A DNA stretch of 64,000 nt from an uncultured Acidobacteriota bacterium (GCA_963782815.1 CAWALG010000030.1:41187-105186); one strand, 5' to 3'; counted from the stretch's first letter, positions 6,294 to 63,216 are shown. Made by a program: numbers and translations. The notes: generated by a model from the letters alone, not told the origin.

Positions 6294-6331
6294 TCCTGAC
6301 CACGCGCCCGCCCCTCGTCGTCCTCCACGCG

Positions 6332-6830: not shown

Positions 6831-6867
6831 CCGACGCGCCTCACTCCTTCCGATCGGCCCCCAAGAG

Positions 6868-7345
6868 CGGGACGTCGTGGAATGCTGGGCGTTATCGCGA
6901 TGTCGTCCGTCTCGCACGAATGGCTTGATGGCGAGAGGCGGGCGGCCGCAAGGGCCGCCCCTACGGCACGAGGGGAGTCGAGGAGAGTGGTGGCGTGATC
7001 ACGATGTTGTCCGTCTCGCACGAATGGCTTGATGGCGAGAGGCGGGCGGCCGCAAGGGCCGCCCCTACGGCACGGGGGGCACGTCGAGGAGAGTGGTGGC
7101 GTGATCACGATGTTGTCCGTCTCGCACGAATGGCTTGATGGCGAGAGGCGGGCGGCCGCAAGGGCCGCCCCTACGGCACGAGGGGCACGTCGAGGAGAGT
7201 GGTGGCGTGATCACGATGTTGTCCGTCTCGCACGAATGGCTCGATGGCGAGAGGCGGGCGGCCGCAAGGGCCGCCCCTACGGCACGAGGGGCACGTCGAG
7301 GGATGCGGTGGCGCCCTTGTCAACTCGTCCGTCTCGCATTGAATC
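6868..7345. repeat. Tandem array B: about 106-bp unit x about 4.5, opposite polarity to array A, hairpin gggcggcc-gcaag-ggccgccc
   Basis: The landmark gtccgtctcgca occurs at 6905, 7009, 7115, 7221 and 7327 (spacings 104/106/106/106). A degenerate partial unit starts near 6868. The last partial unit abuts the stop of the BNR gene (7344). Confidence 0.95.
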
Positions 7346-14435: not shown

Positions 14436-14444
14436 GGCTCGGGG

Positions 14445-17025
14445 CTACTTCACGCCTTCCACGAGGAAGAGGTGGGAGAGCTGGTATCCGAACGAGTAGG
14501 CGTAGCTTTTCCCGTCGTCCGAAAGGGCGAAGGTCCCGATCCGCAGGGCGCCGGCGGTCTCGGCGCCGCCGAACGTGACCAACGGCTCCCTCCGGCCCGT
14601 CGCGAGGTCGAGCTTCTCGCCATGCACGGGTATCTGGGGGCCTCGGAACACGATGATCGAGCGGCCGTCTGAGCCCCACCGGAGGGCCTGGTCCTCGGGT
14701 GTCGTTCCGGGCACGGTCCTTGGCGCTCCGCCTCCCGACGGGTAGATCTCGAGACTCCCGGCGCTGCCCCGGACGAGGATCGAGCCTCCGTCGGGCGAGA
14801 CGAAGCCGCGGCTCGTCCCCTCCGGCGTCACGGGACGCGGCTTGCCCCCCGAGATCTCCTGGACGTAGCACCGGACGGCGCGTCCGGTCTCGGCGCCGCA
14901 CACGAGAAGGCGGCGGCCGTCCGGGAAGAACTGCGCCGCCTCGTAGCTGACGATGCCGCCGGAATCGAGCCGGCGCTTCTCTCCCGCGCCCGTGGGGTAG
15001 AGAACGAGCTGAGCGGGCGACGCCGGCACGATGGTCAGGGCCCACTTCCCGTCCGGCGACAGGTCCGCGCCGGCCCCCTCGCCCAGCCGCACGACGGCGG
15101 ACCCGTCCGTGCCGCGCAGGCACACCGCGTAGTTGGCGCCGACGGACCCGCTCTCCTCGGTGAAGAGGAGCGTCTTTCCGTCGGCGGAGAGCGCGTTCGG
15201 ATCGGAGAGGTCGAGCCAGGAGAGATCTCGCTCGGCTTGTTCTTCGCGCGCCTTGCCGAACATCTTCCGGAAGAGGTCGTCCCGGGTGGCGAGCCACCGG
15301 CCGTCGGGACGGATGTCCTGGATCGTCGAGCCCTCCGGCGCTCTCGATCGCGGTCCGCCGCCGGCCCGAGAGCGTGACGGCGTAGACCGCGAAGTTGTTG
15401 TAGGCCCTGCCGGCGGAGAAGAGCACTTCCTCGCCGCTCGGCGACCAGGCAAGCCCCTCCTCTCCCCAGTACCCCTCGGAGAGCACGGTCCGCTTGCCCG
15501 AGAGGTCCACGACGGCGACGAGGCCGCGGTCGTCGTACTTCAACGGGTGCTCGAAGAACGCGATGCGGTCCCCCTTCGGCGAGAATCGCAGGTCGCTCAT
15601 GTACCCGCTCGCTTCGCAGAGGACCTTCCCGACGGGAAACTCCAGCCTGTCCTTCCCGCCGACGTCTCGGATGATGGCCAGGTCCGCGCCGTCGGGCGAC
15701 CAGTCGGCTTCGCGGACACCCTCCAGGATCTCTCGCGGGGCCGCCCCCTCGACCGGCATCCGCGCGAGCGTGCCGTTGAAGAGATTGTGCGCGACGTAGC
15801 GGGCGCGCGTCAGGACGGCAAGCTCGCCCCTCGAAGAGATCGAAAGCAGATGGATGTCGGAGAGTCCGCGGGCGTTGGCCCCCGGAAAGTCGGGACGCAG
15901 CGAGAAGATCTCGGGAACGCTCCCCTGGATCGCCGCGCTGAAGACGATCTTTCCGTCCGGCGCGAAGCGCGCCTTGAAGATCGGCTGCTGCCGGAACGTC
16001 AGCTGCGAGAAGGAGGGCCCGGCCGGCGCCCTGCTCCTCTCTATTCGACGTCCGGCGATGTAGGCCGCCGCGACGGCCGCCGCGAGGACCGCCACCGCCA
16101 CTCCGACGAGAACGCCGCGCCGCGAAGGGGCGGGTTTCGCGGCGACGGACCGAATCCCGGGCGCCGAGAGCCCGGACAATGACTCCAGATCGAAGGCGAG
16201 GTCGCGCGCGGATTGGAACCGCTGCTCGGGGTTCTTCTCGAGGCAGTGGCGCAGGACCCTGTCGAGGCCCGGCGGGAGATTCTGGTTGGTCAGCGAGAGA
16301 TCGGGCGGATCCTCCCTCAGGATCGCGGACATCGTGTCCGCGGCGGAGTCTCCGTGGAACGCGCGGTTGCCCGAGAGCATCTCGTAGAGGATCGCGCCGA
16401 AGGAGAAGAGGTCGCTGCGGGCGTCGGCCGGCCTTCCGCGCACCTGCTCCGGCGCCATGTAGCCGATCGTTCCGAGGACGACTCCCGGCTCGGTCCCGGC
16501 CGTCGCGGTCGGCAGATTCGTCTTCTCGCGCGCGCCCTCTTCGGTGTGCGTCAGCTTCGCGAGGCCGAAGTCGAGGATCTTCAACCGCCCGTCCTTCGTG
16601 ACGAAGAGGTTCTCCGGCTTCAGGTCGCGGTGGACGATCCCCTTCTCGTGCGCCGCGGCAAGCCCGTGCGCCATCTGGAGCGCGTAGTCGATCGCCTTGC
16701 GCGGCGAGAGCCTTCCGCCGGCGAGGGCCGCGCGCAGCGTCTCACCTTCCAGAAGCTCGCTGACGACGTACGGCGCCCCTTCATGAGAGCCGATGTCGTA
16801 GACCGCCGTGATGTTGGGATGATTGAGCAGCCCCGCCGCCTTCGCCTCCTGCTCGAACCGCCGCAGCCGGTCCGCGTCGTTGGAGAAGGAGGCCGGCAAA
16901 ACCTTAATCGCCACCTCGCGAGAGAGCCGAGAGTCCCGTGCGCGATACACCTCACCCATCCCTCCGGCGCCGAGGGAAGAGAGGACCTCATATGGACCAA
17001 GCTTGCTGCCGGCCGGGATCGTCAT
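14445..17025 (-). CDS. Ser/Thr protein kinase fused to beta-propeller (apparent frameshift near 15350)
   Basis: [47 protein letters not shown] and APEQ are in ORF 14116..17025. The C-terminal propeller part, ending ...HLFLVEGVK, is in ORF 14445..15452. Confidence 0.85.
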
Positions 17026-17072
17026 CTCAAGCTTCTTGCCGCGAAGAGACTCATCTCAGATTGCCTCGAAGC

Positions 17073-19641
17073 TCATCTTGCTCCCTCGACCACGAAGAGA
17101 TGAGAGATCTCCTGCCAATAGTTATAGACATAGACGCTCGGATCATCCGCGAGGGAAATGGAGAAAATGCCGAGAAGCCCCGCCGCATCCTTCGGGGCGA
17201 GCTTCTCCATCAGTTCGCGGCGCCCGGTCTGGAGGTCGAAACGCTCGACCTGGGCCGGGACCTCGGCCCTGCGTCGGATCCAGAGCGATCGGCCGTCGGG
17301 ACTCCAGCGGATGACGAGGTCTTCCCCAGTCAGATCGAGGGGGACCGGCGGCCCGCCGGCGAGCGGATAGAGGGCCCATCGCCCGGCGTTCCGCGCCAGA
17401 ACGAGGCGGCCGTCGGGCGACGGGAGGCCGAAGCTCGCCCCTTCCGGTGTGACCGGGCGGGACGCGCCCCCGGACGCCGGTTGCTCGTAACACCGTGCGG
17501 CGCGCCCGGGCTCGTGCCCGCAGACGAGCAATCTCTGTCCATCGGGGAACCACGCCGCAGATTCATAACTTTCCAGATTGCCCCGCTCCAATTGACGCGC
17601 CTCGCCCGGGCCCGTCGGATAGAGGCGCAGGTAGGGTGGGGAAGCCGGAACCCAGGCAACCGCCCGGGAGCCGTCCGGCGAAAGATCCGCCGCTCTGCCT
17701 TCGCCGAGCCGGACCACCGGCGACCCGTCGGTCTTCCGAATGCAGACCATGTAGTTCGGGCCCGCCGACTCACTCTCGTCGGTGAAGAGCAGCGTCTTTC
17801 CGTCGCGGGAGAGGATCGGAGCCAGAGAGTTGCCGAGCCAGGAGAGGTCCCGCTCCGTGTTCTCGCCCGGCGCCTTCACCAGGAAGCCCGTCCTCAGATC
17901 GTCGCGAGTGACGAGCCAGCGTCCGTCGCGCGAAACATCCTGGATCGTCACTCCGCCGGCGCTCTCGAGCACGACACGCTTCCGGCCCGAGAGCGTCACT
18001 GCCTGGACCTGGAAGCTGGAATAGTTCTCCCCGCCCGAGAAAAGAACTTCTTCTCCGTTTGGCGCCCAGGCCAGGCCCTCTTCGCTTCCGTAGTCGCCGG
18101 AAAGGACGGTTTTCTTTCCCGCGCGGTCGACGACGGCCACGGTCCCCCGGTCGTCGTAGCGGATCGGGTGGTCGAAGAAGGCGATCCGATCCCCCCTGGG
18201 CGAGACGCGAACGTCGCTGACATAACCGCCGGTCTGGTAGAGAACCGTTCCGATCGGGAACTCCAGGCGATCTTTTCCCTCGACTTCCCGGATGATCGCG
18301 ATACTCGAGCCGTCGGGGGACCAGTCCGCCTCGCGGACGTTCTCGACAACCTCGCGCGGCGCTCCGCCTCCCAGAGCCATTCGCGCGAGCGTGCCCGTGA
18401 AGAACCGATGGTTGATCCACTTCGCCCGCGTGAGAAGCAGAAGCTCTCCCTGTGACGAAACGGACAACAGATGCGTCTGGGCAAGTCCCAGGGGCCGCGA
18501 CTCCGGGTATTCGGGCCGGATGGAGAAGAGCTCCGGAACGTTTCGCTCGAGGGCCGAGCTGTAGACGATCGTCTTGCCGTCCGGAGCGAAGCGCGCGACG
18601 AAGATGATCTGTGGCTGGAAGGTCTTTCGGGCGAACGTGACCGGCGTCCGTTCCTTCGGGGCATGGGAGAGTCGGCCGGCGAAGTAGGCAACCGCCAGCG
18701 CGGCGAGAGCGAGCGCCGCGAACAGGACTCCGCGCGCCGCACCGGCCTTGCGCGCCCCGGCCGCCGGCATCGGCCGCTCCGGAGACGAAATGCCCGACAG
18801 CTCCCCGAGATCGAAAGCGAGGTCGTGCGCCGAGTGGAAGCGCTGCTCGGGGCTCTTCTCGAGGCAGTGGCGGACGATCCGGTCGAGTCCCGGCGAGATG
18901 TTCTGGTTGGTGAGCGAGAGATCCGGCGGATCCTCCCGCAGGATCGCCGACATCGTCTCGGCCGCCGAGTCGGCGTGGAAGGCGCGCCGGCCCGAGAGCA
19001 TCTCGTAGAGGATCGCGCCGAAGGAAAAGATGTCGGAACGGGCGTCGGCGGGCTTGCCCTTCACCTGCTCAGGCGACATGTAGCCCAGAGTGCCGAGCAC
19101 GACGCCCGGCTCGGTGCCTGCGGTCGCCGTCGGCAGATTCGTGACCTGGCTTCCCTCCTCCGTGCGCGTCAGCTTGGCCAGGCCGAAGTCGAGGATCTTG
19201 ATCCGGCCGTCCCTCGTGACGAAGAGGTTCTCGGGCTTCAGGTCGCGGTGGACGATCCCCTTCTCGTGCGCGGCGGCCAGGCCCTGCGCGATCTGCCGGG
19301 CGCAGTCGAGCGCCTTGCGGAGAGAGAAGCGCCCGCCGGCGAGCGTCGAGCGCAACGTCTCGCCTTCGAGCAGCTCCTGCACGACGTAGGGCGCGCCGTC
19401 ATGAGTCCCGATGTCGTAAACGGCCGTGATGTTGGGATGATTCAGGAGTCCCGCCGCCTTGGCCTCCTGCTCGAACCGCCGCAGTCTTTCCGCGTCCGCC
19501 GAGAGGGAGGCCGGCAGAACCTTGATTGCGACCTCGCGTGCCGAGTCGCGAATCCCGCGCCCGATACACCTCTCCCATCCCTCCCGCGCCGAGCGGCGAC
19601 ACGATCTCGTAGGGACCCAGACGGGTTCCGGCGCTGATCAC
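17073..19641 (-). CDS. Ser/Thr protein kinase fused to beta-propeller (2 apparent frameshifts near 19545 and 19390)
   Basis: GTG at 19641 gives [33 protein letters not shown] (ORF 19399..19641). The kinase core and propeller are in ORF 17073..19382 ([15 protein letters not shown]; ends ...HLFVVEGAR). It is a close paralog of 14445..17025. Confidence 0.85.
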
Positions 19642-21943: not shown

Positions 21944-21992
21944 ATGGGAAAGCATTTTAACATAAATATGTGTGCAGGCAGTTCAGTTAGAA

Positions 21993-23477
21993 TCATGCCG
22001 GCGCCGGCTGTTGCTCGGAGCGGATCTCGGTGACGGCCGCTCGGATGTCCTCCATCCCTTCGCGCATGCGCTCGGCATGGGTTCGGAAGGAGAGAACGCA
22101 GATGCGGATGGCGAATCGCTCCGTCTCCCTCTCCCCGCGGGAGAGGGTTGGGGTGAGGGGCGCCTCAGCATCGTTCCTGTCAGGTAGACGCGCTTCTTCG
22201 CGTTGATGCGCTCCAGAAGATCCCGGTTGATCCGGTTCAGGGCTTCGTCGTCGTGGCCTTCGCCTCTCCAGCGGAAGGCCACGATCGAGAGCTGGGGCTC
22301 GGCCAGGATCTCGATGGCCGGGATCTTCCGCAGCTCCTCCGCGGCCCACGCGGCGAGATCGAGCTTCTCGTCGAGGTTCGCGCGGAAGGGTCCGATGCCG
22401 TGCATCTTGATCGGGAGCCAGGCGCGCAGGCCCCGCCAGCTCCGCGAGAGCTCCGGCGAGATCTGGTTGAAGTCCACGAGGTCGGGGTCCTCCTGCATCG
22501 AGGGGAGGTAAGGGGCCGACAGTGCGTGCGCGCGCTTCAGCGCGTCGCCGTCGCGCACGAGGAGCGAGCCGATCCCGTAGGGAAGGAAGAGGCTCTTGTG
22601 CGGGTCGAGCGTGATCGAGTCGGATCGCTCGGCGCCCGCCATCGCCTTGCGGCCGCGCTCGGTCAGGAGAAAGAAACCGCCGTAGGCGCCGTCCACGTGG
22701 AACCAGAGTCTTTCGCGGGCGGCGATGTCCGCGAGCGCCGCGAGGTCGTCCACCGCGCCGGTATTGACGCTGCCGGCGTTGCCGACGACGAGAAACGGCT
22801 GGAATCCGGCCGACCGGTCGGCCGCGATCGCGCGCGCCAGGTCTTCCACCCGGATCCGGAAGAGCCCGTCCGTCGGGATCTCCCGGACGTTCCCCTCCGG
22901 GAAACCGGCGAGCATCGCCGCCTTCTGGATGGAGTGGTGGACCTGGTCGCTGGCGTAGATCGTGCCGGAGAGAAAATTCTCGGGCAATCGCTCGCGCCGG
23001 GCGGTGACGACCGCCGAGAAGTTCGCGAGCGACCCTCCCGTCGTCAGGATTCCCCGCGCCGTCTCGGGATACCCGCGATCTGGCAGAACCAGGAGACGAC
23101 GTTCGTCTCGATCTGCGCCAGGCCCGGCGCCGCGGCGAAGACGCCGACATAGCGGTTCGTCGCTCCCGCGATCAGGTCCGCGACCGCCGCGTGCGGGACG
23201 CCTCCGCCCGGGATGTAGGCGAGGTAGCCGGGCCCCGCGGTGTTGAACCCCTTCGGAATGACCTTCTCGAAGAGCAGGTCGAGCAGCTCGCCGGCCGGCC
23301 GCCCCGTCTCCGGCAGGGGCTCCCGCAGCGACCGCGCCAGGGCCGCTGCCCCGGCCGAGTCCCCGAGGGCTGGCGCGGCAGCGATTCAATGTAAGCGAGG
23401 ATGCGCTCCGTCGCAGCCTCGATCAGGCCGCGCAGCTCTTTTGAAGAGAGCTCGAGCGTTCGGTCGGCATCGTTCAT
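21993..23477 (-). CDS. pyridoxal-dependent (group II, aromatic-amino-acid-type) decarboxylase, disrupted (2 frameshifts near 23365 and 23075 plus a palindromic insertion at 22121-22164); possibly a pseudogene
   Basis: The reading starts MNDADRTLELSSKELRGLIEAATERILAYIESLP. It continues ...GPGYLAYIPGGGVPHAAVADLIAGATNRYVG..., then ...TTGGSLANFSAVV...DPHKSLFLPYG (PLP lysine)...KRVYLTGTML. The expected tail ERFAIRICVLSFRTHAERMREGMEDIRAAV...* is found in another frame (ORF 21993..23150). Confidence 0.85.
22121..22164 (+). repeat. GC-rich palindromic element (ctctccc-cgc-gggagag + ggttggggtgaggggcgcc) lying inside the decarboxylase CDS
   Basis: The sequence is ccgtctccctctccccgcgggagagggttggggtgaggggcgcc. 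A second copy in the same orientation is intergenic at 36016-36053. Confidence 0.85.
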
Positions 23478-23577: not shown

Positions 23578-23653
23578 TGTGGGGTAGTTGAATTGGTACA
23601 ACGTCCGGCTGTTAACCGGAAGGTTGGTGGTTCGATTCCACCCCCCACAGCCA
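23578..23653 (+). tRNA. tRNA-Asn (anticodon GTT), CCA encoded
   Basis: Manual cloverleaf: acceptor TGTGGGG/CCCCACA, D arm GTTG-AATTGGTA-CAAC, anticodon arm TCCGG-CTGTTAA-CCGGA, variable AGGTT, T arm GGTGG-TTCGATT-CCACC, discriminator G, CCA. Length 76 nt. Confidence 0.95.
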
Positions 23654-23817
23654 ACCGTCGCTCCGCGCTCCGCAAGGGATCTGCGCCCTGCGGGCGCACC
23701 GGCGAGCGGCTCGGCCGGATGCGGCCTCGACCGCTCGCCTGATCCCTTGCTCCGCGCTTCGCTCCCGCGGCGGGAGGCTCCTCCCTCGCCTGCTCGGGAG
23801 ACTCCTCCCGCCGCGAG
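23654..23817 (+). repeat. R module copy 1 (structured GC-rich dispersed repeat) directly after tRNA-Asn
   Basis: Hairpins are gcgccc-tgc-gggcgc and ggcgagcgg...ggccg-gatg-cggcc...ccgctcgcc (23701-23739). Homologous to 32897-33096 and 36064-36210, and partly to 37327-37400. Confidence 0.85.
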
Positions 23818-24102
23818 ACCGGAACCGGAAGGGACGGGTTCTTTTGGCCCTCCTAGGCGCGGACACCGGTACGAACCGGGCGGGCCTTATCCACGGCCAA
23901 AGACCATCCCCGCCCAAGTTCGGAGACCCAAACAATCAGTCTCCCCGCTTCGCAAAGGCCCAGCCGTTACGGTTGTACCTCTCCGGTAACTCCCGCAGAA
24001 GCGGGAGGTGGATGTAAGGGGAGATGCTGCGGGGCAGTTATCCCCCCTGGGTCGCTCGTAGAAGCCATCGAGTTAATCGGGACGATCGTCGGTCCTTGCA
24101 TT

Positions 24103-27091
24103 TCAAAGACCGTCCAGGGGTCCCTGGCTGACCCACAGGGACATTAAAGGCGGCCGTGAGGTCACTACCTGATAGACCCGAACTTGCGCTTGTGAGTTAG
24201 AGAGCGCTGAACTTGTTGTCGAGAACCGGTTTACGTAATCATGCACCGAGAACCGGTACAGGCCATCGCTTTCTGCAGAAGCGTCGTAGTCTGGCCCAAA
24301 ACTCGAGGTGTCATCCAAGTCAAGATGAACAATCGACGGCCAGGGGCTACCCAAGTTGGAGTCGGCGTAGGGATAGAACATGTGGAAACGACTGCCGTCG
24401 GGAAGGGGACCCGTAAAGTGCGAATCAAGATCTGGGGGTACCGGGCCCCATGTCAGTACTATCCGGGTCTACCGGCGGAATGATAGCCGTGATCACCCCA
24501 TTTTGATTCCCGGTGAAGGTTCCGCCGATGCACAGCACAGGGAAATAGCTGGTTCGAATATCCAGCCCCGCTGGCCTCAGCGGTATAGTTGCCCGCCGGG
24601 ATACTGGCCAGTGAGTATGCTCCATTCGAGCCAGTGCTCGTCGTCGCAGCAAAAGCGCCGCTGGTAGTATTCAGGCCGGGCCTCAGGCCATAGCTAATCC
24701 AGGCACCCAGCTCCAGAGATCGCATTAAAGACGGAACCCCCGACGCCGCCAGGACCAGAATGTGCGATATCTACTTGAAGGATGACGTCCAGTGTCTTCG
24801 TCTCATTCGGAAGAACGGTGACATTATTATAGGTCACCGGCAAGTAGCCCGGCCGGGAGATCTGAATCGATAGACCGCTCCTGGAATCGCAGCCACTTGA
24901 AACTGGCCCTCCGTATCCGTAAGCAGGGAATCTATGAGGTCCCCGTCACGATAGACCGCTACAACGGAATTCGGCAGCGGGAAATGCGTGATCGCGTCGC
25001 GGACCACGCCCACGATCCTGCCGTTCGAGCCTAGTCCTCCCTCCGCGATGAGCCGCCGAAACTGGATGACTAGCCGGGAAGTCCTGATCCGCCAGGGTGT
25101 GGTCGAATATTTGCACGAGGATACCCGCGTTGGCCTCGAGGCCGCCCGAAGATCTGCCAGATCGGGGTTCGGAGAAATGACGTCAATCTCCCCAAAGGCG
25201 TCGAGATCGGCGCGAGGTCCGATCACTCCGTAGACCAAGAGCTTCCGAACCTCGGTCCAACAAGGGCCTTGATATTGGCGCCCACGGAAAACTCCGGACC
25301 GCTGAAGGACAAGGAACTGGAAAACGCCGAAATGGGGCTCCAGCTTCATTCCGCGAAACCGACCCCGGCGGTCGCGATCGCCGCCTGAGTCACTTCCACC
25401 TGAATTCCCGCGGACGCTGTTCCTTTGGCGTGCGCCGTTAAGCTCGACGCTCCCGGAACGATCACCACCGGCAGCCACCCCAACCATATTACGATGGGAT
25501 TCCACTGATACTGTGCGAAGTCGACTTCCTTATCGAAGCTCTACCTCCACTCGACTCTTGATCGTGAGGTCGACGCTTTCGTTGAGCTGAACATAGAACG
25601 CGAGCTGATTGAGGTGGAAATCACTCGCGTCGAAGACGCTAAAGTGGAGCTGGGGATCAGCGGTGATACTCCCATCGAGGAGAATCTGGTCGCTGGTTGT
25701 GGCGGGATTTCCGTCTTTATCGAACACGACGAGGTCGTCCGTCGGACGCTTATCCCGCTATCGGCAGGGGCAGAAGGCGCGGGCGAACCGACGGGTCTGG
25801 AGCGATACTCCCGACGTGGCCGTTACGCTCGAGGCGAGATCTCCGGAGCTAAGGTGTTGATCCAGAACAGCCGACGCGTTTAGGAAGGCCTCGCCGAGCG
25901 ACACCTCCGTCGTCGATACGAGTAGCTGATCACCAGACGTCGTCACGCTGGCGATCTTCCCGAGGAAGCCGGTTGGTATAGGACCGGCCGGCGGCAGGGC
26001 CAATATGGTCCCTGAGTGAGCCGGCAGCTCGGCGTTCGCGGCGGAGGAGATGAGGCCGCGACCGTCGGCGGTAACACCGGTAAGAAGTGTCAACGAGGCG
26101 GGTGACAGCGTTGCTGTGTTGGGCGCCGGAACATTGCCGGCATAGTCGACCGTGGTGGTCACCTTTAGGGTCCGCGGAATCGTCTGGGAGGCCTGGCGCA
26201 GGTCGAATGGTACCGCTGTATACACCAGTGGCAGCCCTCGTCGGGACTGAGAATGAAAGAGTGACGGTGTAAGTCGTCGATGGCAGGAGGACGGCGAAGG
26301 TGGAGGGCTGCACGCCGACGAGCCCCTGAACCGACGGGACGACGAATAGGTCCACATTGTCAAGCCGCTGTGCCACCGTGAATGTCACGGGCATCGGCGA
26401 GACAACGGTTCCGTCACCGATCGTCTTCGTCACCTGGCTGGGGCTCCAGACTGCGACGTTTGCGGAAGCCGTTGCAGCCCAAGTGCCGAAGGGCTTGAAA
26501 GCGCGACCAGAGCATGCCTCCTTGCTGTCCACAAATACGTCGGTTGTGGCACGCTGCCCTGTTCCAGGGCTTACGTCTAAGACATCGCCAGCTCTCAGGA
26601 AATACTTGCTTGGCAGGTCGTCGACAGTCGCTTCGAATTGAGTTCCGGCAACTGTGTCGCCATACCAGAGCCTTGCCGTTCCGGAATTGTGCGTCCTGCC
26701 GGTACAGGCGTTACGAACTGCAAGGCGAATACTCAAGGTATCGCCTGGCTCTAGGCTTACCGGTCCCATCAAGGTTAGCGGAATGGCGTTAAGTTTGGCA
26801 TTCGCAAACCCGCTGCTGCCGCCCTCGACGCCCAGCAGCTGACCCCTAACCAATAGCTAGGCCAGACCTGTAGACGTCAGCGCGCAGGTCAAAATCGGGT
26901 CCCCACGTCATCGCTGTTCTTGAGCCCTATCCACACTTTCGCCGCGCCGAGTGACGAGATGTCGCCCGGCGGGATTGTCCCGGCCTATGCCACTCCCGTT
27001 ACTACGAGACTCACTACAACAGCAAGACAGAGACCTGCGAGAAGGGTGACTGCAGCTTCAATATGCGCTTCCGTCTCTCAAGATGCGACAT
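24103..27091 (-). pseudogene. decayed large secreted/surface protein gene (CarboxypepD_reg-like domains) in low-GC island
   Basis: ATG at 27091 follows aaaaggag, giving MSHLERRKRILKLQSPFSQVSV... (signal-like). The reading then hops between all three minus frames (ORFs 25930..26853, 25758..26363, 25530..25727, 24834..25505, 24459..24725, 24425..24652, 24103..24381). It crosses in-frame stops, e.g. GVA-TAG-AGTIPPGD. Carboxypeptidase-regulatory-like segments include GRIVGVVRDAITHFPLPNSVVAVYRDGDLIDSLLTDTEGQFQVAAIPGAVY and GAYSLASIPAGNYTAEASGAGYS. Confidence 0.7.
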
Positions 27092-27544
27092 CTGACTGTC
27101 TCCTTTTCGGCTGACAGAACGAATTGCAAGGCACCGCCCCGTGTGACTGCCTCAGTTGAGCAACACGTAGAGGCGTTGCCATTGAAGCAGAATCTAAGTG
27201 CCGTAGGTCTGGCGGTGCAATGATACGGACACATCAGTTTGTTCCTCGACTATGCGCAAGACCTGCACACTTAACGCCGGAATGGGGTTTGTCGCTGAGG
27301 CTCAAGGAACTGCTTCGAGTCGACGAAAGGGGGCTTAGGAAGCCAGTACCAAGGGTCGACAGAAATCGGACCATTCAGTTCGAAGTACGCAACGAGTGCA
27401 CAATGTCGTTGTGCCTCTAGTTCGTGATTCGGGAGTACCAGGAACCTTGCGTGTGGTCGACGTCGGACTCTATCGACGATCCGTAGCCGTTCCAGTCACG
27501 AGACGCCAAATTTGCCGAAGCATCTGGGAAGAGGCGCTTCGCCT

Positions 27545-27679
27545 CCATGTCTGTCACACTTCTGCCACACCGATGACCCAGAGACCTGACGAGAGCGAGG
27601 AGAAAACGCCGTACTGACGAGGGTTTCCGGATCTCGCTGCTTCAGAGGACCGGGGGTTCGATTCCACCCCCCACAGCCA
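27545..27679 (+). repeat. X module copy 1 (27545-27654) plus 25-nt copy of tRNA-Asn 3' end (27655-27679)
   Basis: ggttcgattccaccccccacagcca is identical to tRNA positions 23629-23653. The preceding roughly 110 nt are homologous to 32766-32863. Confidence 0.85.
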
Positions 27680-27773
27680 TCTCCCAGGATCAGATGGGCA
27701 ACTCCGTGCGGGCGGCTTTCGTCAACGAAACGGGACGCGGTGGTGTTCGACGGCGCATCGACATGCCAAGTCA

Positions 27774-28712
27774 TTAGAAATTGACGGATCCGGAGACCTG
27801 AACCGAGTATCCCTGGAACGTCGATTTGTTCGAGAACTCCTTCAGGAACTTGGCGCCGAGGCTCACCTTGCGTCCCGGCAACCCGACGTTGGCGGCGAGG
27901 CCGAACGCGTTGATCTGGTAACGAGCATCCGCTTCGGCGACCGTCACGTTGAGACCGGTCTTTGCCGTCGTCTGCCACTGCTCGTACCCGGCCACCCCGA
28001 TCTGGAGGCGCAGGTCCGGCAGCAGCGATACCGTGTGCGTGGCTGAATAGTCGAGGCTCAGCGTCTGGCCGGGGTGAATCCCGGTGCCCTCCTGCGACCC
28101 GTGAAACTCGTAGATCTCGAAGGCGGAGATCGCGGTCGCCCGGTTCTCGGCCAGGTAGACGGTCTCCCCCGCCGAGAGAATGTGGGTCCAGTAGCCGGAT
28201 CCGACGTTGTCGCTCGCCCCGGCCTGGAACCTTCCCGTCGGAGCCAGGAAGCCGTAGGCGAACCGAAGATCGGCGCGTTTCGTCGCCCAGCCGAGGATCA
28301 GGGGCTGGTAGAAGGAGTCCGCCAGCCCCCCGCCTCCGCTGAGGGACCCGGCCACGTCCGAGGCCAGGGAGTTGTTTGCGATCGGAATCGTTGCCGCCAG
28401 CGAGTATTTCGCGCCGCCCAGCTGCGGGAGCACTCCGCTCACCCAGGCGAAAGTGTTCATGTCCATCAGGACAGAGTTCGATCCCGTCGCGAGGGTCTCG
28501 CCGTTGGGCCCCTTCGACTCATCGCGCGAGTAGAAGATGAAAACGTTCGCGTAGGTAAACCCCGGCGCTGGAACGACTCCCGAGTTCGTGGCGCTCATGC
28601 CGAGCGGATAGACGCCCCGGTTCTGCGCGAGCGCTCGCGCCGGAGCCAGCGAGAGGAGAACGGCGGCGGCCAGCACTCCGGCCGCCCGGATCGGAAGGCG
28701 CCGGATCCTCAA
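27774..28712 (-). CDS. outer-membrane channel protein (MetA-pathway/phenol-degradation-like OMP family)
   Basis: TTG at 28712 overlaps the upstream stop (TTGA). The signal peptide is MRIRRLPIRAAGVLAAAVLLSLAPARALAQ. The body is beta-barrel-like, with the C-terminal signature ...STFQGYSVQVSGSVNF. Confidence 0.75.
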   Translation of the reverse strand: MRIRRLPIRAAGVLAAAVLLSLAPARALAQNRGVYPLGMSATNSGVVPAPGFTYANVFIFYSRDESKGPNGETLATGSNSVLMDMNTFAWVSGVLPQLGGAKYSLAATIPIANNSLASDVAGSLSGGGGLADSFYQPLILGWATKRADLRFAYGFLAPTGRFQAGASDNVGSGYWTHILSAGETVYLAENRATAISAFEIYEFHGSQEGTGIHPGQTLSLDYSATHTVSLLPDLRLQIGVAGYEQWQTTAKTGLNVTVAEADARYQINAFGLAANVGLPGRKVSLGAKFLKEFSNKSTFQGYSVQVSGSVNF

Positions 28713-29555
28713 GCTCGAGCCTGGCCGCGCCGGGACAGGCTCCGGGACAGAGGCATGAGAATCAGCAGTCCCACGATCGCCACGACCACGACCATGAGCA
28801 CCACTTTCGGATCGCTGAAGTTCTGCCCTCCCACGACGAGCGCCGCCGCGATGTTGCGCTGAGCGGTGCCCAGGGCCAGGACCCGGCGGGTGTCGAGGGC
28901 GGGCCCGCCGAGGACGTGGCCGATCGCGAAGCCGAAGACGATGAAAAGGATCCCGGCGAGGATGCCGCGCGTGCCGAACACGTCGAGCAGCTTGTCGAAG
29001 TTGGTCACGACGAGAAGCGCGATCAGCAGAATGAGGCTCAGGTTGGAGGTCTTGTCGAGGAAGGGCCTGGCGCGCGCCGCGACGGCATCGAACCGGGCGT
29101 TGACGGCGAGCCCGACGCCGAGGGGCAGCAGCATGAGCAGGACGAGCGAGCGCGCGATCTTCACGGCATCGACCGAGACGCCTTCGAGCAGCCGCGGCAG
29201 GACGAGGGGCATGTAACCGACCGTCAGGACCATCAACAGCACCATGAGGCCGACCGCGAAAGCCAGGTTGCCTTTGGCGAGCCCCGCCAGCTTGGGCAGG
29301 AAAGGAGCGCCGGCCGCCGTTCCCAGGATCAGCAGCCCGGCCGCCAGGGCTTCGTGGAGACGAAGCAGCCTCGCGATCCCGAACGCCCCCGCGGGCATCA
29401 GGACGAAATTCGCCAGCAGGGCCAGGGCAACGAGCCGAACGTTTCGCAGCGGGGCCGCGATCTGCGCCACCGTCAGGGACAGGCCCATCGCGAGCATGCT
29501 CGACACCACGAACACGAGCATGGCGATCGGGACGAGCTTTGCTCAGGAATTCCAT
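28709..29555 (-). CDS. bile acid:Na+ symporter (BASS) family transporter (possible 1-nt indel near 29540)
   Basis: ORF 28709..29521 is polytopic (GTAAGAPFLPKLA, LALGTAQRNIAAALVV). The ATG at 29555 overlaps the upstream stop (TGATG) and gives MEFL.., joining KLVPIAMLVFVV after one indel. The alternative start is 29521. Confidence 0.8.
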
Positions 29556-30565
29556 CACTTCATGACGGCGAGATTGCGCCAGAAGTTCGCCAGGCTCTCG
29601 GTCCCGCCGAAGAGAGTCGTGAAGTGGGTGGAGTCCACGAGCAGGATGTCGCCGGCTCGCCGGTCTTTCGGCGGCATCCACAGGAGCAGGTTGAACTCCT
29701 TGTTCCCGGCGTTGGTGAAGGGATGCGGACGATCCGGGTCGATCAGCTGCCGCGCCAGGACCTTCACCGCGCCGGTGTCCTGCCCGGTCAGCTCGTAATG
29801 GGGGAGGTGGGGGTGGAAATTGAAGGTCGTGACCTTGTCGAGCAAGCCCTTCTCGTCGAGGTCGCGGAACCCCGTGAGCGGCGCGATCTCCTTCGTGCCC
29901 TGGACGACCGCCGGCCGCAGTCCCCACTGGTTGAGCACGGGGACGTCGAGGCCTTTCATCAGCGAGCGCGTGTACTTCCCGAACCGCTGCTGGCGGGGTA
30001 CGAGCCTGTCGCCGTGATGGCGGTATTCCATCTGCCGCTGTTTGAAGTCGTCGGTGAAGCCGACGTCGTGGTGCGGCGCGAGCAGCAGGCAGGTCCCTTC
30101 GCGCCGCAGCCACTCGCGGATGGCCTCGATCTCCTCCGGCTCGGCCACCTGGTCGGAAGCGAGATGGTCGAGGCCGAAGACCATGAGGGTGTCGGTGTCG
30201 GCGAGGATCCGCTCGTCGATGGGGAGGCGGTAGCCCGCCTGGTCGATCCGCTGGAAGACGGCGACCGGGTAGCCCGTTGCTTCCCCGGCGATCTGCTGGA
30301 AGCTGAGCGTCGAGCGGTGAAACAGCTCCAGCGTTCCCGCGATCCCCTGGAGAAACTGCGCCGCGCTGTACTCGGGAGTCTCGTAGGCGGGCCAGAGGAC
30401 GTTGCGGACCTCGGTGATCGTGGAGAAACGGTTCTCCATCGCGGCCGGATCGCGGCCGGCCTCCCAGGGATAGCTCCAGGTCCAGTAGATGCTCAGCCGC
30501 CGCTTGCCCGGCTTGTGCGCTCGGGCGACGTGAGCCTGGTTATAGGTTCGCGCGGGCTGCTTCAT
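29555..30565 (-). CDS. conserved hypothetical protein (336 aa)
   Basis: Intact ORF 29555..30571. The ATG at 30565 follows gaggag. The sequence ...DTLMVFGLDHLASDQVAEPEEIEAIREWLRREGTCLLLAPHHDVG... matches no family I can name with confidence. Confidence 0.7.
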   Translation of the reverse strand: MKQPARTYNQAHVARAHKPGKRRLSIYWTWSYPWEAGRDPAAMENRFSTITEVRNVLWPAYETPEYSAAQFLQGIAGTLELFHRSTLSFQQIAGEATGYPVAVFQRIDQAGYRLPIDERILADTDTLMVFGLDHLASDQVAEPEEIEAIREWLRREGTCLLLAPHHDVGFTDDFKQRQMEYRHHGDRLVPRQQRFGKYTRSLMKGLDVPVLNQWGLRPAVVQGTKEIAPLTGFRDLDEKGLLDKVTTFNFHPHLPHYELTGQDTGAVKVLARQLIDPDRPHPFTNAGNKEFNLLLWMPPKDRRAGDILLVDSTHFTTLFGGTESLANFWRNLAVMK

Positions 30566-30595
30566 GGCCACTCCTCTTCTCCTGTCGGAACGGTT

Positions 30596-31914
30596 TCATC
30601 CGAGTGACGTGAGATACCGAAGCGCCTTCAAGCCGGGAAGAAAGAAGTAGGCGCCTCCTCTCACGGTCGTGAAGGCCGGAAGACCGGTGATGGTCTTCCG
30701 GATCGGGCGCTTCGGGATCTTGAATTCGAGCGTTCCATCTTGGTTGCCGATGATGGGATCCCGCTCGTTGACGAGCTCGTGGAAGGCCTTGTCGTTGGCC
30801 CACACGTTCTGCGCGAACTCGAACTGGCGGACGAGGCTCGCGCAGATCACGAATGCCGCGATGCCGCGCTCCTTGCCGTCCTCGGGCGCGTCCTCGGGCA
30901 GGGGCGGGCCGTAGGTGGCGCCGCGCCGGATCATGCGGCGGCGGTTCATGTTCGCGCCGGTGTCCCGAGGGTTCATCCGCCGCATGTGGGAGCCGAGCGG
31001 CACGGCGTAGCCGTGCGGGTCCTGCTGCTTGTAGTTGAAGTCATTGTTCCGCTGCGGGTCGGCGCCCAGCGCCGGGTCGTCCTTGTCCGGCGCCAGGACC
31101 AGCGGCGCGCCGCTGCGCCAGCCGGCCCATGAGCTTCGCGGCGACGAGCTCCTGCTCCTCGGGCGTCTGGCCGTGCGTCTTCAGGAAGTCGCGGAACGCG
31201 CCCACGTGCTCCTCCAACCGCCGATACGCCATGAAGCTGCCGTTTCGCGAGAGAAGCTCGGGCTGCGGCTGAAGCAGAGGCGGACCGTTTTCGTCCGGAT
31301 AGCCGAGGATGAACTCGCCCGGCTTCAGCGGCGCGCCGGAGCCGGGCGTGGGCTCCTCGCCCGAGCCTTCGATGACCGGCTGCGACAGCCGGTCGCGGTA
31401 ACCAAAGTGGTCGTGCGCATAATCGAACGGCGGGGTCGCCTCCAGATCGAGCGTCGACAGCACACTCACGCCGTCGCATCGGGCGATGAGCTTCTCGTGC
31501 TCGGCCCGGCTGCGCTCGCGGTCGGCGGCGTCGCGCGCGAAAAGGATCACGATGGCGTGCAGGTCGGGGCTGGCCAGGCCTCCGACCCAGTTGTCGGGAT
31601 GGTTCGCGCCGGTATCGCCGAGGATCTGCGCGCGCGCCACCATGCCTTGCCGGAACTCATCGGGGAACGTCGCCAGGGACGCCTCGTCCACTCCGAGCGC
31701 GCGCAGGCCGTTGCAGGTGAAGGCCACCGTCACCCAGCGACGCTCCGTCTCGACCGATGCGCTGCATGGCGGCGGCGGACTGCACCTTGTCCAGAATCGC
31801 GGCAAGCCACGCGCGTCCGCCTGCCGGGTTCCGGAACGACAGGAACTCGTACCGGCCCGTGAGCGCGGGCGCGCGCGTCAGCAGGATGTGCTGGATGTCG
31901 TCGAAGGCGAGCAC
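30596..31914 (-). CDS. DyP-type peroxidase (locus A; apparent frameshifts near 31750 and 31125)
   Basis: GTG at 31914 gives MLAFDDIQHILLTRAPALTGRYEFLSF. The middle part contains HFGYRDRLSQP (GxxDG-region variant). After ...AAKLMGRW the reading SGAPLVLAPDKDDP...GYAVPLGSHMRRMNPRD holds the proximal His. The sequence also has FEFAQNVW and ends ...FFLPGLKALRYLTSLG*. Confidence 0.85.
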
Positions 31915-32490
31915 CGCTCGCTCACTGCATCTGGTCGAGCATGGTCGAGAACGACGGCCTTCAGCTGCAGCGCCTTCTTGATCTCGTCGGCGCTGACGAA
32001 TGGATACTCGCCGTACTCCAGGAAGCTCGGGCACTGGTGATCGCGGACAAACTTGATGAAGGCCGGCGGGTTCGTCTTCCAGTCCTTGGGGAAGCCCTCG
32101 AGGTTTTCAAAAACGGTGTTGATGCCGAGCTTCGTGAAGAGCGCCACCGCATCCTCGGTGTACTTGTCGAAGTCGGTGTCGAAGATTCCCTGGTACATGA
32201 AATAAGTTTCGCCCTTGATCGGGAACAGCACCCAGCGCAGGTAGTGCAGCTTGAGCACGGCGAGGCAGTCCGGCTGGCCGGCGACCGCCTTTTCGATGTT
32301 CTTGCGCGTATTCGTGGAAGACCGGTTCCCGTCCCGGGATGATCTTCGCGATGATCGTGAAGCCATAGCACGCGGGCGTTTTGGGAAAGATCGGCCCGTA
32401 TCGCCCGTCTTCTTTCTTGAAGAAGCCCTCCTTCGGGATTGCCATCGCGGCTGGCCTGGTCCAATCATTCTGGTTGGGGATGTTTGCCAT
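31878..32490 (-). CDS. uncharacterised DyP-associated protein, single H-Y-L-R-W-V domain (apparent frameshift near 32305; 3' end uncertain, 31878-31927)
   Basis: ATG at 32490 follows aaggagga, giving MANIPNQNDWTRPAAMAIPKEGFFKKEDGRYGPIFPKTPACYGFTIIAKIIPGREPVFHEY. After the frame change it reads RKNIEKAVAGQPDCLAVLKLHYLRWVLFPIKGETYFMYQGIFDTDFDKYTEDAV...FVRDHQCPSFLEYGEYPFVSADEIKKA. Homologous to both halves of 49202..50506. Confidence 0.7.
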
Positions 32491-32593
32491 GTTCCTCCTT
32501 AAATGGGTACGGTCGTGAAGGTTGAACTTTTTAACCGTTGAGCGGCCTGCCGTCAAGCGAAACGTTCGATCGGGCCGGAACATTCGAATCCTC

Positions 32594-32752
32594 AGAATCC
32601 GATCGCGCCCGAGAACTGAAGCGAGAAACCCTGGAATGTCGAGCGAATGCCGAATTCCTCGAAGAACCCCACGCTCGAGTTCAGGTTCGGTTCGCGGAAA
32701 CTCGTGTTCAAACCGAATCCGACGGCGCTAACCGCGTAGCGCTCGAGTGACT
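32594..32752 (-). pseudogene. C-terminal fragment of a second MetA-like OMP gene
   Basis: The minus-strand reading ...SLERYAVSAVGFGLNTSFREPNLNSSVGFFEEFGIRSTFQGFSLQFSGAIGF* parallels the end of 27774..28712 (ARYQINAFGLAANVGL...FSNKSTFQGYSVQVSGSVNF*). No N-terminal part is present, and homology stops next to the X module. Confidence 0.7.
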
Positions 32753-32765
32753 GAGCCGGAGGTTT

Positions 32766-32896
32766 CCATCCGTCACACTTCCGTCACACCGCTGGCCCGA
32801 GAGGCTTGACGAGAGTGAGACAACGCCGTGCTGACAACGGTTTTCGGATCTCGCCGTTCTAAGAGGTTGGTGGTTCGATTCCACCCCCCACAGCCA
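32766..32896 (+). repeat. X module copy 2 (32766-32863) plus 33-nt copy of tRNA-Asn 3' end (32864-32896)
   Basis: aggttggtggttcgattccaccccccacagcca is identical to the variable loop, T arm and acceptor 3' strand with CCA of the tRNA at 23621-23653. Confidence 0.9.
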
Positions 32897-33096
32897 CACG
32901 TCGCTAAGCGCTCTGCGAGGCATATGCGCCTTGTGGCGCACCGGCGAGCGACTCGGCCGGATGCGGCCTCGATCGCTCGCCTGATCCCTCGCTCCGCTCT
33001 TCGCTCCCGCGGCGCGAGGCTCCTCCCTTCGGTTACTCGGGAGACTCCTCGCGCCGCGAGCAACGGCGGCATCCCGGTGGTCTATTGGATGTGTCC
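32897..33096 (+). repeat. R module copy 2
   Basis: cacgtcgctaagcgc...gcgcc-ttgt-ggcgc...ggcgagcga...ggccg-gatg-cggcc...tcgctcgcc (32943-32981)...gggagactcctcgcgccgcgag...ccggtggtctattggatgtgtcc. It has the same order and orientation as copy 1. Confidence 0.85.
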
Positions 33097-33358
33097 CTAA
33101 GGACGTGTCGAGGGTACGCCTACCCTGTCATCCTGAGCGAAGCGAAGGATCTGCCCTCGCGGTCTGGCTCCGTCTCCTCGAAGTCAACCGGAGCAGGCGC
33201 CGGGGACGAGCGAGGAGGTTCGGTAGGAAGTCGCCCAGCACCGGTAGGATCGATCGCAGTAATACACCGATACACGATTGACCCCATTGCGATTCGCACG
33301 CTTGCCGCATAGGTAACCGGGGGAAGCCGGCGGAGCCTGGGTAGGGCAACCAGCGCCC

Positions 33359-33364
33359 TATAAT
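33359..33364 (+). promoter_or_regulatory. candidate -10 box (perfect TATAAT) 10 nt upstream of the kinase GTG start, implying a near-leaderless mRNA
   Basis: The sequence ccctataatcccggccgacGTG is an isolated AT hexamer in GC-rich DNA. No convincing -35 was seen. Confidence 0.3.
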
Positions 33365-33374
33365 CCCGGCCGAC

Positions 33375-35963
33375 GTGTCCCTGACGGCCGGTTCTTGGCT
33401 CGGGCCCTACGAGATCCTGTCGCCGCTCGGGGCCGGCGGGATGGGCGAGGTCTGGCGGGCCCGCGACACGCGGCTTTCCGCGAGGTGGCGGTCAAGGTCC
33501 TGCCGGCGGCGCTTTCGTCGGACGCGGAGCGGCTCCGGCGGTTCGAGAAGGAAGCGCGCGCGGCGTCCTCTCTGAACCATCCGGCGATCGTCACGATTTA
33601 CGAGATCGGAAAGGCGGAAGGGGTCTCCTACCTGGCCATGGAGCTCGTCGACGGGACGACGCTTCGCGAGGCGCTCGCCGCGGGGCCGCTCCCGGTCCGC
33701 CGGCTCCTTTCGATTTCCGCGCAGATCGCCGAGGGACTGGCCAAGGCGCACGGGGCCGGGATCGTGCACCGCGACCTGAAGCCCGAGAACGTGATGGTGA
33801 CGAAGGATGGCTTCGTCAAGATCCTCGACTTCGGCCTGGCCAAGGTCGTTGCCCCGGAGCCGGAGGCCGGGCAAGCGACCAGGGCGGCGACGGTTTCCGC
33901 GGGCACCGAACCGGGCGTCGTGATGGGGACGGTCGGCTACATGTCGCCGGAGCAGGCGCGCGGCGATCCCTGGACTTTCGCTCCGACCAGTTCGCGCTCG
34001 GCTCGATGCTCTACGAGATGGCGGTGGGCAGGCGCGCTTTTGCGGGCGGGACGAGGCCGGAGGTCATGGCGGCGATCATCCGCGAGGAGCCGGAGCCCAT
34101 CGCGACCGCGAATCCGAAGGTTCCGGCGCCGCTCCGATGGGTCATCGAGCGCTGCCTCGCCAAGGACCGGAGCGAACGCTACGCCTCCACCGAGGACCTC
34201 GCCCGCGACCTGCGGGGCGCCGAGGCGCATCTGTCGGAGCTCTCGGGAGGGGCCGCGGGAATGGGCGCTTCCGAAGCGACACGCCTGGCGCCGCGGAGGA
34301 AGCGGTCTGCTCGGAGGTCGCGGCTGGCGTTCTCGCGGGCCTCGTGTTCGGCGCAATGGGATTCTGGCTGGCCGCCGGCCGATCTCCGCATCCCTCCCAC
34401 GTTCCCTCCTTCCAGCGCGTGACGTTTCAGCGGGGAAACGTGCTCAATGCCCGGTTTGCCCCCGACGGACAGACGATTCTCTACAGCGCCTCCTGGGAAG
34501 GCCGCCCGGCGGAGGTCTTCTCGACGCGGGTCGACGGCACGGAGTCCCGGCCGCTCGGGCTCGCGAAGGCCGATCTGGCGGCTGTGTCAGAAGCGGCGAG
34601 CTGCTCATCCTTCTCAAGAGCTCCGACTTGCAGACACCCGGAGGCGTTTCCACGCTGGCGAGGGTCTCCCTTTCCGGAGGCGCTCCGCGCGAGATCGCGC
34701 AGAGCGTGCACATGGCCGAGTGGCTGCGTGGAGGCGGGATCGTCGTGCAACGGCATGTCGGCTTGGACCATGACGTGCTGGAGCTGCCGCTCGGGACGCG
34801 CCGCCTCGAATACAACGGGTCCGCTCCGAGGGTTTCGCGAGACGGCCGTTTCATTGCGATCGCCCGAGGAACGGTTCAAGGCGGCGAGGGCTCGATGTTC
34901 TCGATGAGGCAGGCAAGGTGGTCTGGAGCATAAAGGCGGACGTGGGCCTCGCAGCTCGCCTGGCATCCGAACGGCGAGCTGTGGTTCTCGCGGGATGCCG
35001 GCCAGGAACCTGGCCTTTTCGCCGTCGCGCGCGGAGGCCCATTCGCTCGATCTTCAGGGCGAACGGCTGGGTCCTGCACGACATAGCGCCCGACGGGCGG
35101 CTGCTCATGGAACGCGCAATCAGCAGGAACAGCATCCGGGTCCGAGTCAATGAGCCGAGGGAGCGCGAGCTCTCATGGCTCGACGGCTCGGAGCTCGTTG
35201 GGATGTCGAGCGACCTGAAGGCGCTGCTCTTTTCCGAGACGAACGAAGCCGGGAGCCGCGCCGGAGGCGTCTATCGCAGAGGGACGGACGGCTCCCCGGC
35301 GGTTCGGCTCTCGGACGGGAGAGCCCTCGCGTTTTCGGAGGACGGCCGCTGGGCGCTTGTCCGCGAATCGGGACGCCGGCCCGGCACACTCTCGTGCCGA
35401 CCGGAGCGGGCGAGCCCGTGCCGCTCGACTTCGGCGGCGACCGCCTGCTGTCGGCCGTCTTCCTGCCGGGACCGGAGCCGCGGCTTCTGGCCACGGTGGG
35501 CGAGAGCCCCGACCGAGGCCATGTCGAGCTCGTGACGCCGGCCGGGCGCCGCCCGCTCCCGATCTCGCCGGGCTTTACCCCCGGCGACGTGGCGGTCTCG
35601 CCGGAAGGAAGCGCGATCGCGTACGGAGCGGCCTACGGAGCGGGAGCGCGCGAGGTGGCGCTGTGTCAACTCGAGAAGCCGTCCTGCCGCAAGCTTCCCC
35701 TGCCGGCGGAGGCGACACCAATCCAATGGAGCGCCGACGGGAAATATCTGTATCTGCGCGACTATGGCGAGATCCCGGCCCACGTCATCCGCTACGAAAT
35801 CGCCACCGGCGCCCAGACGAACTGGCTGACACTCGGGCCTGACGATCCCACCTCTATTATCGTCGTCGGCCGCATCCTGCTGTCTCGCGACGGCCGCAGC
35901 TACGCCTTCAATCCCCTCGGAGTCCAGGACTCGAGCCTCTTCGTCGTCGAAGGCTTGCATTGA
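33375..35963 (+). CDS. Ser/Thr protein kinase fused to beta-propeller (several apparent frameshifts)
   Basis: [34 protein letters not shown] is ORF 33375..33575. [16 protein letters not shown] and SPEQ are in ORF 33395..34933. [17 protein letters not shown]... is in 34006..34422. Propeller parts are in 34137..34907 and 34918..35535. The C-terminus ...[11 protein letters not shown] is in 35175..35963. Confidence 0.85.
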
Positions 35964-36063: not shown

Positions 36064-36210
36064 CCGTCGCTCAGCGCTTGCGCGTGGTCTGCGCCCTGCG
36101 GGCGCACCGGCGGGCGGCTCGCGCGGATGCGCGCTCGACCTCTCGCCTGACACCGCGCAAGCACTCCGCTCCCGTGCCGATGGCATGCCGGTGGTCCATT
36201 GGATGTGTCG
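36064..36210 (+). repeat. R module copy 3
   Basis: ccgtcgctcagcgc...gcgccc-tgc-gggcgc...ggcgggcgg...gcgcg-gatg-cgcgc...cctctcgcc (36109-36147)...ccggtggtccattggatgtgtcg. The inner stem changed GGCCG/CGGCC to GCGCG/CGCGC while the loop gatg is kept. Confidence 0.85.
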
Positions 36211-63194: not shown

Positions 63195-63216
63195 CCCCGC
63201 GCTCTTCCCGGAGCCT

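Follow-up and report, generated by a model that had tools for sequence, protein, structure and literature searches.

Gene content of a tRNA-Asn locus and its two downstream segments

We analysed a 64,000-nucleotide stretch of DNA (the window; contig C30:41187-105186 of genome G000, GCA_963782815.1 CAWALG010000030.1) from an uncultured Acidobacteriota bacterium, in which a tRNA-Asn gene is followed by two direct copies of its own 3′ end that delimit two adjoining segments of DNA. The intact tRNA-Asn(GTT) gene occupies positions 23578-23653 of the plus strand (ARAGORN; Rfam RF00005, 71.3 bits). It is the sole tRNA that ARAGORN detects in the window. The last 25-33 nt of this gene are the proposed recombination core, and the 25-mer GGTTCGATTCCACCCCCCACAGCCA is found exactly at 23629, 27655 and 32872, always on the plus strand, compared with 0.00 matches expected from shuffled sequences. 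Core copy 2 (27655-27679, plus strand) comprises 25 nt of the tRNA 3′ end, and core copy 3 (32864-32896, plus strand) is a perfect 33-nt match to tRNA positions 44-76; the coordinates and orientations in the original prediction, which had been derived from the sequence alone, were thereby reproduced. As attachment (att) sites, the tRNA gene would serve as attL or attB, copy 2 as attR of segment 1 and attL of segment 2, and copy 3 as attR of segment 2. These three places, all of them in the window, are the only ones at which the core is found in the 41 contigs (4.06 Mb) of the assembly, and an nhmmer profile of the whole module in which the copies are embedded revealed no further degenerate modules beyond the three known sites. 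The locus thus has the intact tRNA at the near boundary and the direct 3′-end repeat at the far boundary that are looked for in tRNA-integrated islands.

Segment 1 (23654-27654, 4.0 kb) has a low GC content, 53-63% versus 66-70% in the flanks, and contains only fragments of a decayed gene for a surface-type protein, so that the original description of this segment agrees with both its composition and its domain content. These fragments lie at about 24100-27090 on the minus strand, scattered over several frames, and carry CarboxypepD_reg and SdrD_B-like domains. When the 52 stop-to-stop frames of at least 55 codons in all six frames of the segment were searched at E ≤ 1, no recombinase family was found, and the only hits were weak matches to CarboxypepD_reg, SdrD_B and similar families. 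The interior of segment 1 has no homologue in any fetched locus of the relatives, and a giant protein of the relative G006 matches only the C-terminal ~130 aa of the segment 1 gene, a frame change included. The original prediction needs correcting at the left end of this segment, where the first ~165 nt (23654-23820) are a copy of a dispersed repeat, R, that is described below.

Segment 2 (27680-32863, 5.2 kb) contains an operon of five genes on the minus strand, annotated with Pfam and NCBIfam. These encode a Phenol_MetA_deg outer-membrane protein (27774-28700), an SBF/BASS transporter (28709-29521), a 338-aa protein that has no Pfam or NCBIfam match (29555-30571), a DyP peroxidase (frameshifted, about 30596-31960) and a further protein of unknown function (frameshifted, 31878-32583). 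Segment 2 has a host-like GC content except at its right end, where it is 58-60%; its composition and its DyP, transporter and outer-membrane protein genes match what had been predicted, and of the two segments only segment 1 is low in GC throughout. A copy of segment 2 is present on contig C17 of the relative G007, where the stop-to-stop frames across all five genes are open. Comparison with this copy shows 1-bp insertions in the window at about 31122, 31761, 31956, 32302 and 32527; one base pair is also deleted at 30533, and such indels disrupt the DyP gene and its upstream neighbour. Since the flanking core genes carry fewer 1-bp indels of this kind, we lean towards real decay of the segment 2 genes, with assembly error as the alternative. 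The 338-aa protein, encoded between the DyP gene and the BASS transporter gene, shows 77-89% identity across phyla in 567 confirmed loci, with homologues in Acidobacteriota, Alphaproteobacteria, Actinomycetota (Mycobacterium, Nocardia), Planctomycetota, Gemmatimonadota and Eremiobacterota. This is unusually strong cross-phylum conservation for an uncharacterised protein.

The module surrounding the partial tRNA copies

Each partial tRNA copy is embedded in a conserved, attP-like module of ~260 bp that consists of an X arm, the core and a Y arm. An alignment of 15 partial copies, drawn from three metagenome contigs and six genomes of the genus, shows that the 25-nt core is invariant and always ends at CCA. 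The X arm (~105 nt) is conserved in the aligned copies and contains the direct-repeat pair GTCACAC-N4-GYCACAC about 95 nt before the core, while the Y arm (~125 nt), conserved in most of the copies, contains a second GTCACAC pair about 105 nt after it. In the window, the P-arm-like X arm of module 2 (27545-27654, plus strand), which aligns with 13 other modules, bears the paired motif GTCACACTTCTGCCACAC at 27553-27570, and the X arm of module 3 (32757-32863, plus strand) bears GTCACACTTCCGTCACAC at 32772-32789. These two X arms are ~80% alike, X is found nowhere else in the genome, and at the right ends of both segments the cores and X arms are intact together with their motif pairs. The P′-arm-like Y arm after copy 2 (27680-27725, plus strand) is truncated: it agrees with the Y consensus only over its first ~45 nt and lacks the distal GTCACAC pair. 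The tRNA and copy 3 have R on their right in place of Y. The paired motif is found only in module arms, which account for both of its matches in the genome carrying the window and for all 13 of its matches in nine genomes of the genus, where a reversed control gave 1 match.

The attP site of lambda is a core flanked by arm-type integrase sites, and in size and layout the X-core-Y module resembles a lambda-type attP, being ~260 bp long, containing an identity core and having short direct repeats at about −95 and +105. Any binding of integrase, Xis or host factors to the present module would be putative, and the role of the GTCACAC motif is suggested only by its position and its exclusivity. We rejected the module as a candidate RNA gene, as Rfam finds the tRNA only and the predicted fold is weak (−7.5 kcal/mol, covariation term −0.26).

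The repeat R is a dispersed, GC-rich element of ~165 nt. One copy, R1 (23654-23820, plus strand), starts directly after the CCA of the tRNA and resembles over ~165 nt the copy that follows core copy 3 (32897-33060). The latter, R3, has a ~100-nt extension (32897-33160 in total, plus strand) and would form part of the ancestral tRNA flank. R sequence is also found at 36088-36150. Full-length copies of R mostly begin right after a stop codon, and in at least 10 cases R directly follows the 3′ end of a different tRNA gene. Given this dispersal and this preference for tRNA ends and stop codons, the position of R beside tRNA-Asn is simply its usual habit, and R was ruled out as part of the att site; its distribution suggests a terminator-like or 3′-end-targeting element. 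The tRNA copies themselves might have belonged to a dispersed family of this type, a possibility against which the original prediction was to be judged, but they are no members of the R family: the core occurs three times and X twice in an assembly in which R gives 67 BLAST matches. The extension of R3 contains a 32-nt motif, CCTGTCATCCTGAGCGAAGCGAAGGATCTGC, at 33123-33160, which explains the bulk of the 160 BLAST matches that 33056-33400 gives in the assembly and is dispersed on both strands across most contigs.

Related loci and the search for a recombinase

The related genome G007 holds two haplotypes of this locus, on contigs C17 and C18 (contamination estimate 8%). C18 and the window agree at 90-91% over the genes upstream of the tRNA. 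Next to the tRNA-Asn gene on C18 comes R, and after it ~130 nt that are roughly 90% identical to window positions 33160-33289; this contig aligns with 32864-33289, the flank that lies after copy 3 in the window. G007:C18 is thus an empty site for both segments, with the tRNA joined to the copy 3 flank as the original prediction had envisaged for related genomes. The corresponding flank in the window (33160-33289, plus strand) is unique, with no other copy in its own genome, and marks the original attB flank. On G007:C17, segment 2 directly adjoins the tRNA and segment 1 is missing. Because segment 2 alone abuts the tRNA there, the repeats are boundaries of presence and absence, and with both segments lacking from C18 and segment 1 absent from the fetched loci of the relatives, segments 1 and 2 are present or absent independently of each other, with the repeats as their limits. 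Window positions 27652-32566 are 96.6% identical to G007:C17 over 4.9 kb, as against 79-89% in the common flanks, and the lineages exchanged segment 2 after these flanks had diverged.

A tRNA-Asn gene with one or two partial 3′ copies 3.4-18 kb downstream is found in five relatives (G001, G002, G005, G006 and G007). G009 also has a complete module, with a diverged core, and seven genomes of the genus carry modules in all. A search of 175 genomes of the order, including 105 from the same family, found modules with arms only in this genus, the exception being one Y arm behind an odd tRNA-Asn pair in G022, which belongs to another genus. At that site (G022:C5, L182, 5570-5800), two tandem tRNA-Asn-like genes that are not called by ARAGORN have the variable region replaced by a ~38-nt GC-rich hairpin, and downstream of them come a Y-type arm, which has three GCCACAC repeats, and cargo of the RHS and surface-protein types. 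The arrays contain 104 likely open reading frames (ORFs), among which Ser/Thr kinases with PD40 or TPR repeats predominate (17 ORFs); the others include cytochromes, DUF499, a KAS III-type cluster and two insertion sequence transposases. A metagenome scan yielded six further modules or attL sites.

Kinase genes are also prominent around the tRNA in the window. The tRNA-Asn neighbourhood is crowded with paralogous Ser/Thr kinases of ~850-980 aa with PD40 or TPR repeats, and kinase-rich stretches are present at 14119-19637 (minus strand) and 33317-35960 (plus strand) of the window and in the arrays of G002, G005, G006 and G007. The second stretch in the window is a decayed kinase gene, broken into several frames, of the paralogue family that dominates the tRNA-Asn arrays of the relatives; it is split over five ORFs that cluster with the array kinases, and the Pkinase domain is detected only over residues 28-189 of a 512-aa ORF. 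In several relatives a kinase gene stops 170-340 nt ahead of an X-core module, and part of a kinase N-terminus lies in front of some X arms. The upstream neighbours of the tRNA are genes for a pyridoxal phosphate (PLP)-dependent decarboxylase and a beta-lactamase. The PLP-decarboxylase gene (21983-23389, minus strand) has a 41-nt insertion in its coding region at about 22115 relative to G007:C18. Elsewhere in the window, 6220-7313 is occupied by tandem arrays of 108-nt units (five copies) and ~105-nt units (four copies), and one related 71-nt copy lies at 63214-63284.

The original prediction had found neither a tyrosine nor a serine recombinase, which our profile searches bear out. A six-frame hidden Markov model (HMM) search for tyrosine recombinases gave no PF00589 match, whole or fragmentary, on contig C30, and the three matches in the remainder of the genome are all on other contigs. 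The same six-frame search of this genome and seven relatives gave no match in any array, and specifically none inside the tRNA-Asn arrays of G002, G005, G006 and G007. Among the module carriers, six-frame integrase searches covered the genome of the window and five relatives; in G009, G022 and the three metagenome contigs the main reading frames were checked. No serine recombinase (PF00239) was detected in seven genomes of the genus, the present one included. Integrases are absent from the families listed for the 104 array ORFs, and the ORFs checked beside the six modules or attL sites from the metagenome scan encode cargo only, with no recombinase among them. Two ORFs of ~400 aa beside the modules of G009 and G022, considered as candidate integrases, proved to encode an SLH protein and a FlgD_ig protein. 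Three scans of viral contigs returned chance motif matches only and nothing specific. The sole non-Xer integrase of the genome carrying the window is of the phage type and decayed, lying in three frames at C41:60692-61996, and abuts tRNA-Thr(CGT) at C41:62005-62080. It is probably the remnant of another island, and we rejected it as a helper on account of its decay and its position at a different tRNA. Judged against tRNA-integrated islands, the array therefore has the repeats and the tRNA but no integrase inside the element.

Origin and mobility of the tandem segments

Taken together, the exact repeats, the conserved arms and the presence and absence of the segments in relatives make it likely that two integrative elements accreted in tandem at the 3′ end of tRNA-Asn(GTT) and that their recombination genes have been lost. 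The original reading of the repeats as the att pattern of tandemly arrayed, tRNA-targeting islands thus draws support from the relatives and from the arms. The integrase would have been of the tyrosine-recombinase type, with core- and arm-binding functions, and would have carried out recombination between a ~260-bp attP and the terminal 25-33 nt of the tRNA. Each integration would regenerate the tRNA at the left junction and leave an X arm and a copy of the tRNA 3′ end at the right junction, so that newcomers would insert beside the tRNA and shift older elements outward. The order of arrival would then be read from the ancestral flank (R3 and the unique sequence from 32897) through segment 2 to segment 1, and the integrase modules would subsequently have been deleted. 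On this explanation it is somewhat more probable than otherwise that both segments are now immobile scars, because neither has a complete left arm: ~45 nt of Y remain at segment 2 and R stands in its place at segment 1. The original prediction had left open whether the elements were immobilised remnants or mobilised in trans, and the missing left arms favour the former over the latter.

Several observations sit less easily with tandem accretion. Segment 1 starts with R and not with Y, which a simple integration model does not predict, and in several relatives the Y arm also follows the last core, so that Y could in part be native tRNA flank. The block that is 96.6% identical to G007:C17 stops at 32566, ~300 nt short of core 3, and the X arms of the window and the G007:C17 copies are only ~80% alike; the exchange of segment 2 may therefore reflect homologous recombination or later remodelling rather than transfer of the intact element. 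Finally, no integrase-bearing member of this module family was found among the loci searched, and the recombinase is hypothetical for that reason.

The same observations can be read in other ways. The modules may be functional parts of a live gene-capture hotspot on which an unlinked or unsampled recombinase, either borne by a helper element or a tyrosine recombinase of the chromosome, acts in trans to insert, excise and shuffle the segments, as happens with cis-mobilizable elements or integron cassettes. The arms are ~80% conserved between segments with unrelated cargo, the core is invariant and the paired arm motif is exclusive to the modules, all of which such a hotspot would explain, as it would the polymorphism of the locus in every genome of the genus examined and the far greater similarity of segment 2 between lineages than that of its flanks; moreover, several tyrosine recombinases are encoded elsewhere in every genome of the genus. 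We nevertheless consider a live hotspot unlikely, as neither segment in the window has a complete left arm, the cargo genes of the window are frameshifted, about ten loci yielded no candidate recombinase linked to a module and the sole non-Xer integrase remnant of the genome adjoins tRNA-Thr(CGT). Several array segments also hold many genes without intervening modules, unlike cassettes. Slightly more doubtful still is the bolder proposal that the tRNA-Asn locus is a working capture platform that has no integrase of its own and is served by an unlinked, possibly domesticated chromosomal recombinase. With comparably low probability, this enzyme would recognise the GTCACAC arms as a private code, and small blocks of cargo would be stacked, excised and exchanged between strains. 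The cargo would comprise Ser/Thr kinases, redox operons, and defence-type and toxin-type genes; if this were true, the platform would correspond in function to an integron, with a tRNA as its anchor, and a trans-acting recombinase, if found, would make it a compact model for integrase-less cargo shuffling in soil bacteria.

Two further readings dispense with site-specific integration. Tandem duplications of tRNA-Asn, combined with homologous recombination in the kinase paralogue cluster, could have left the partial copies as relics, with the variable content arising by ordinary flexible-island replacement through conserved flanks. Tandem tRNA-Asn genes do occur in other genera of the family (two in G022, and four spaced ~117 nt apart in G075), paralogous Ser/Thr kinases abound in the arrays and kinases are also encoded upstream of the tRNA, and the block common with G007:C17 ends inside the element. 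Yet the decay of whole genes would not leave sharp, 100% identical pieces of 25-33 nt ending at CCA, nor would it place the same ~105-nt X arm before each piece; the genus has no accompanying tRNA 5′ halves and segment 1 is compositionally foreign, so that duplication is very improbable as the origin of the array. Least credible of all is an artefact in which a metagenome contig was misjoined at short repeats. The genome is a metagenome-assembled genome (MAG) with a completeness estimate of 56.7% despite 59 tRNA genes, and it shows 1-bp indels relative to its relatives; but an assembler that gave contigs of up to 360 kb would not be misled by repeats as short as 25-33 nt, the succession of tRNA, segment and X-core recurs in five other assemblies and in metagenome contigs, and the junction of tRNA and segment 2 is seen independently in G007:C17. 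The low completeness estimate may itself reflect frameshifted marker genes, and calls of decayed genes in this genome therefore need read support.

Among known systems, the region resembles most closely, by analogy, cis-mobilizable elements (CIMEs) or the remnants of tycheposons. CIMEs are decayed elements that keep their att sites after losing their integration genes and that accrete in tandem by a three-step route, with examples in the ICESt1-related elements of Streptococcus thermophilus and the tRNA-Lys composites of S. agalactiae (PMC5704250). As in CIMEs, att repeats at a tRNA 3′ end flank segments that lack integration and transfer genes, and a single site holds a tandem stack of segments whose related att sites enclose unrelated cargo. 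In contrast to CIMEs, no parental integrative and conjugative element (ICE) or integrative and mobilizable element (IME) is known for the present segments, left att arms are missing or truncated, the host appears to be an uncultured soil-type lineage and the paired GTCACAC arm motif is specific to the window's family. No related ICE or IME with integrase or conjugation genes was found in the genomes of the genus, the metagenome contigs or the viral contigs, so that neither derivation from such an element nor its mobilisation of the segments in cis can be traced here. The tycheposon islands of Prochlorococcus contain tandem elements separated by partial tRNAs, together with degenerate remnants (bioRxiv 10.1101/2020.12.28.424599), and share with the present array the remnants and stray partial tRNAs scattered in islands and a cargo of small adaptive gene sets. 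Tycheposons are, however, defined by a tyrosine recombinase of their own with a replication or packaging module; neither the recombinase nor a replication module was found here, and the host phylum and the att sequence also differ. Integron arrays are similar in their co-oriented small gene sets that lack promoters and mobility genes, in their conserved site-like sequences and in their single chromosomal anchor. They differ in that the window array has no intI beside it and no integrase on its contig, its sites are tRNA-derived cores with long arms rather than attC hairpins (the module fold is weak, as noted above), and many array genes are not individually bounded by sites; the combination of intI and attI beside attC cassettes that characterises an integron is thus absent.

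Integrase-less accretion of islands at a tRNA is a known kind of arrangement, and at this locus it comes with a well-defined, genus-specific att module. The region from 23654 to 32896 is accessory DNA, and by extension the stretch up to about 40300 would belong to a hypervariable island in this uncultured lineage; the DyP operon and the decayed surface-protein gene should therefore not be taken for core metabolism. With its core, two arms and private motif, the att module may be used to find a helper element and to delimit islands in related MAGs.

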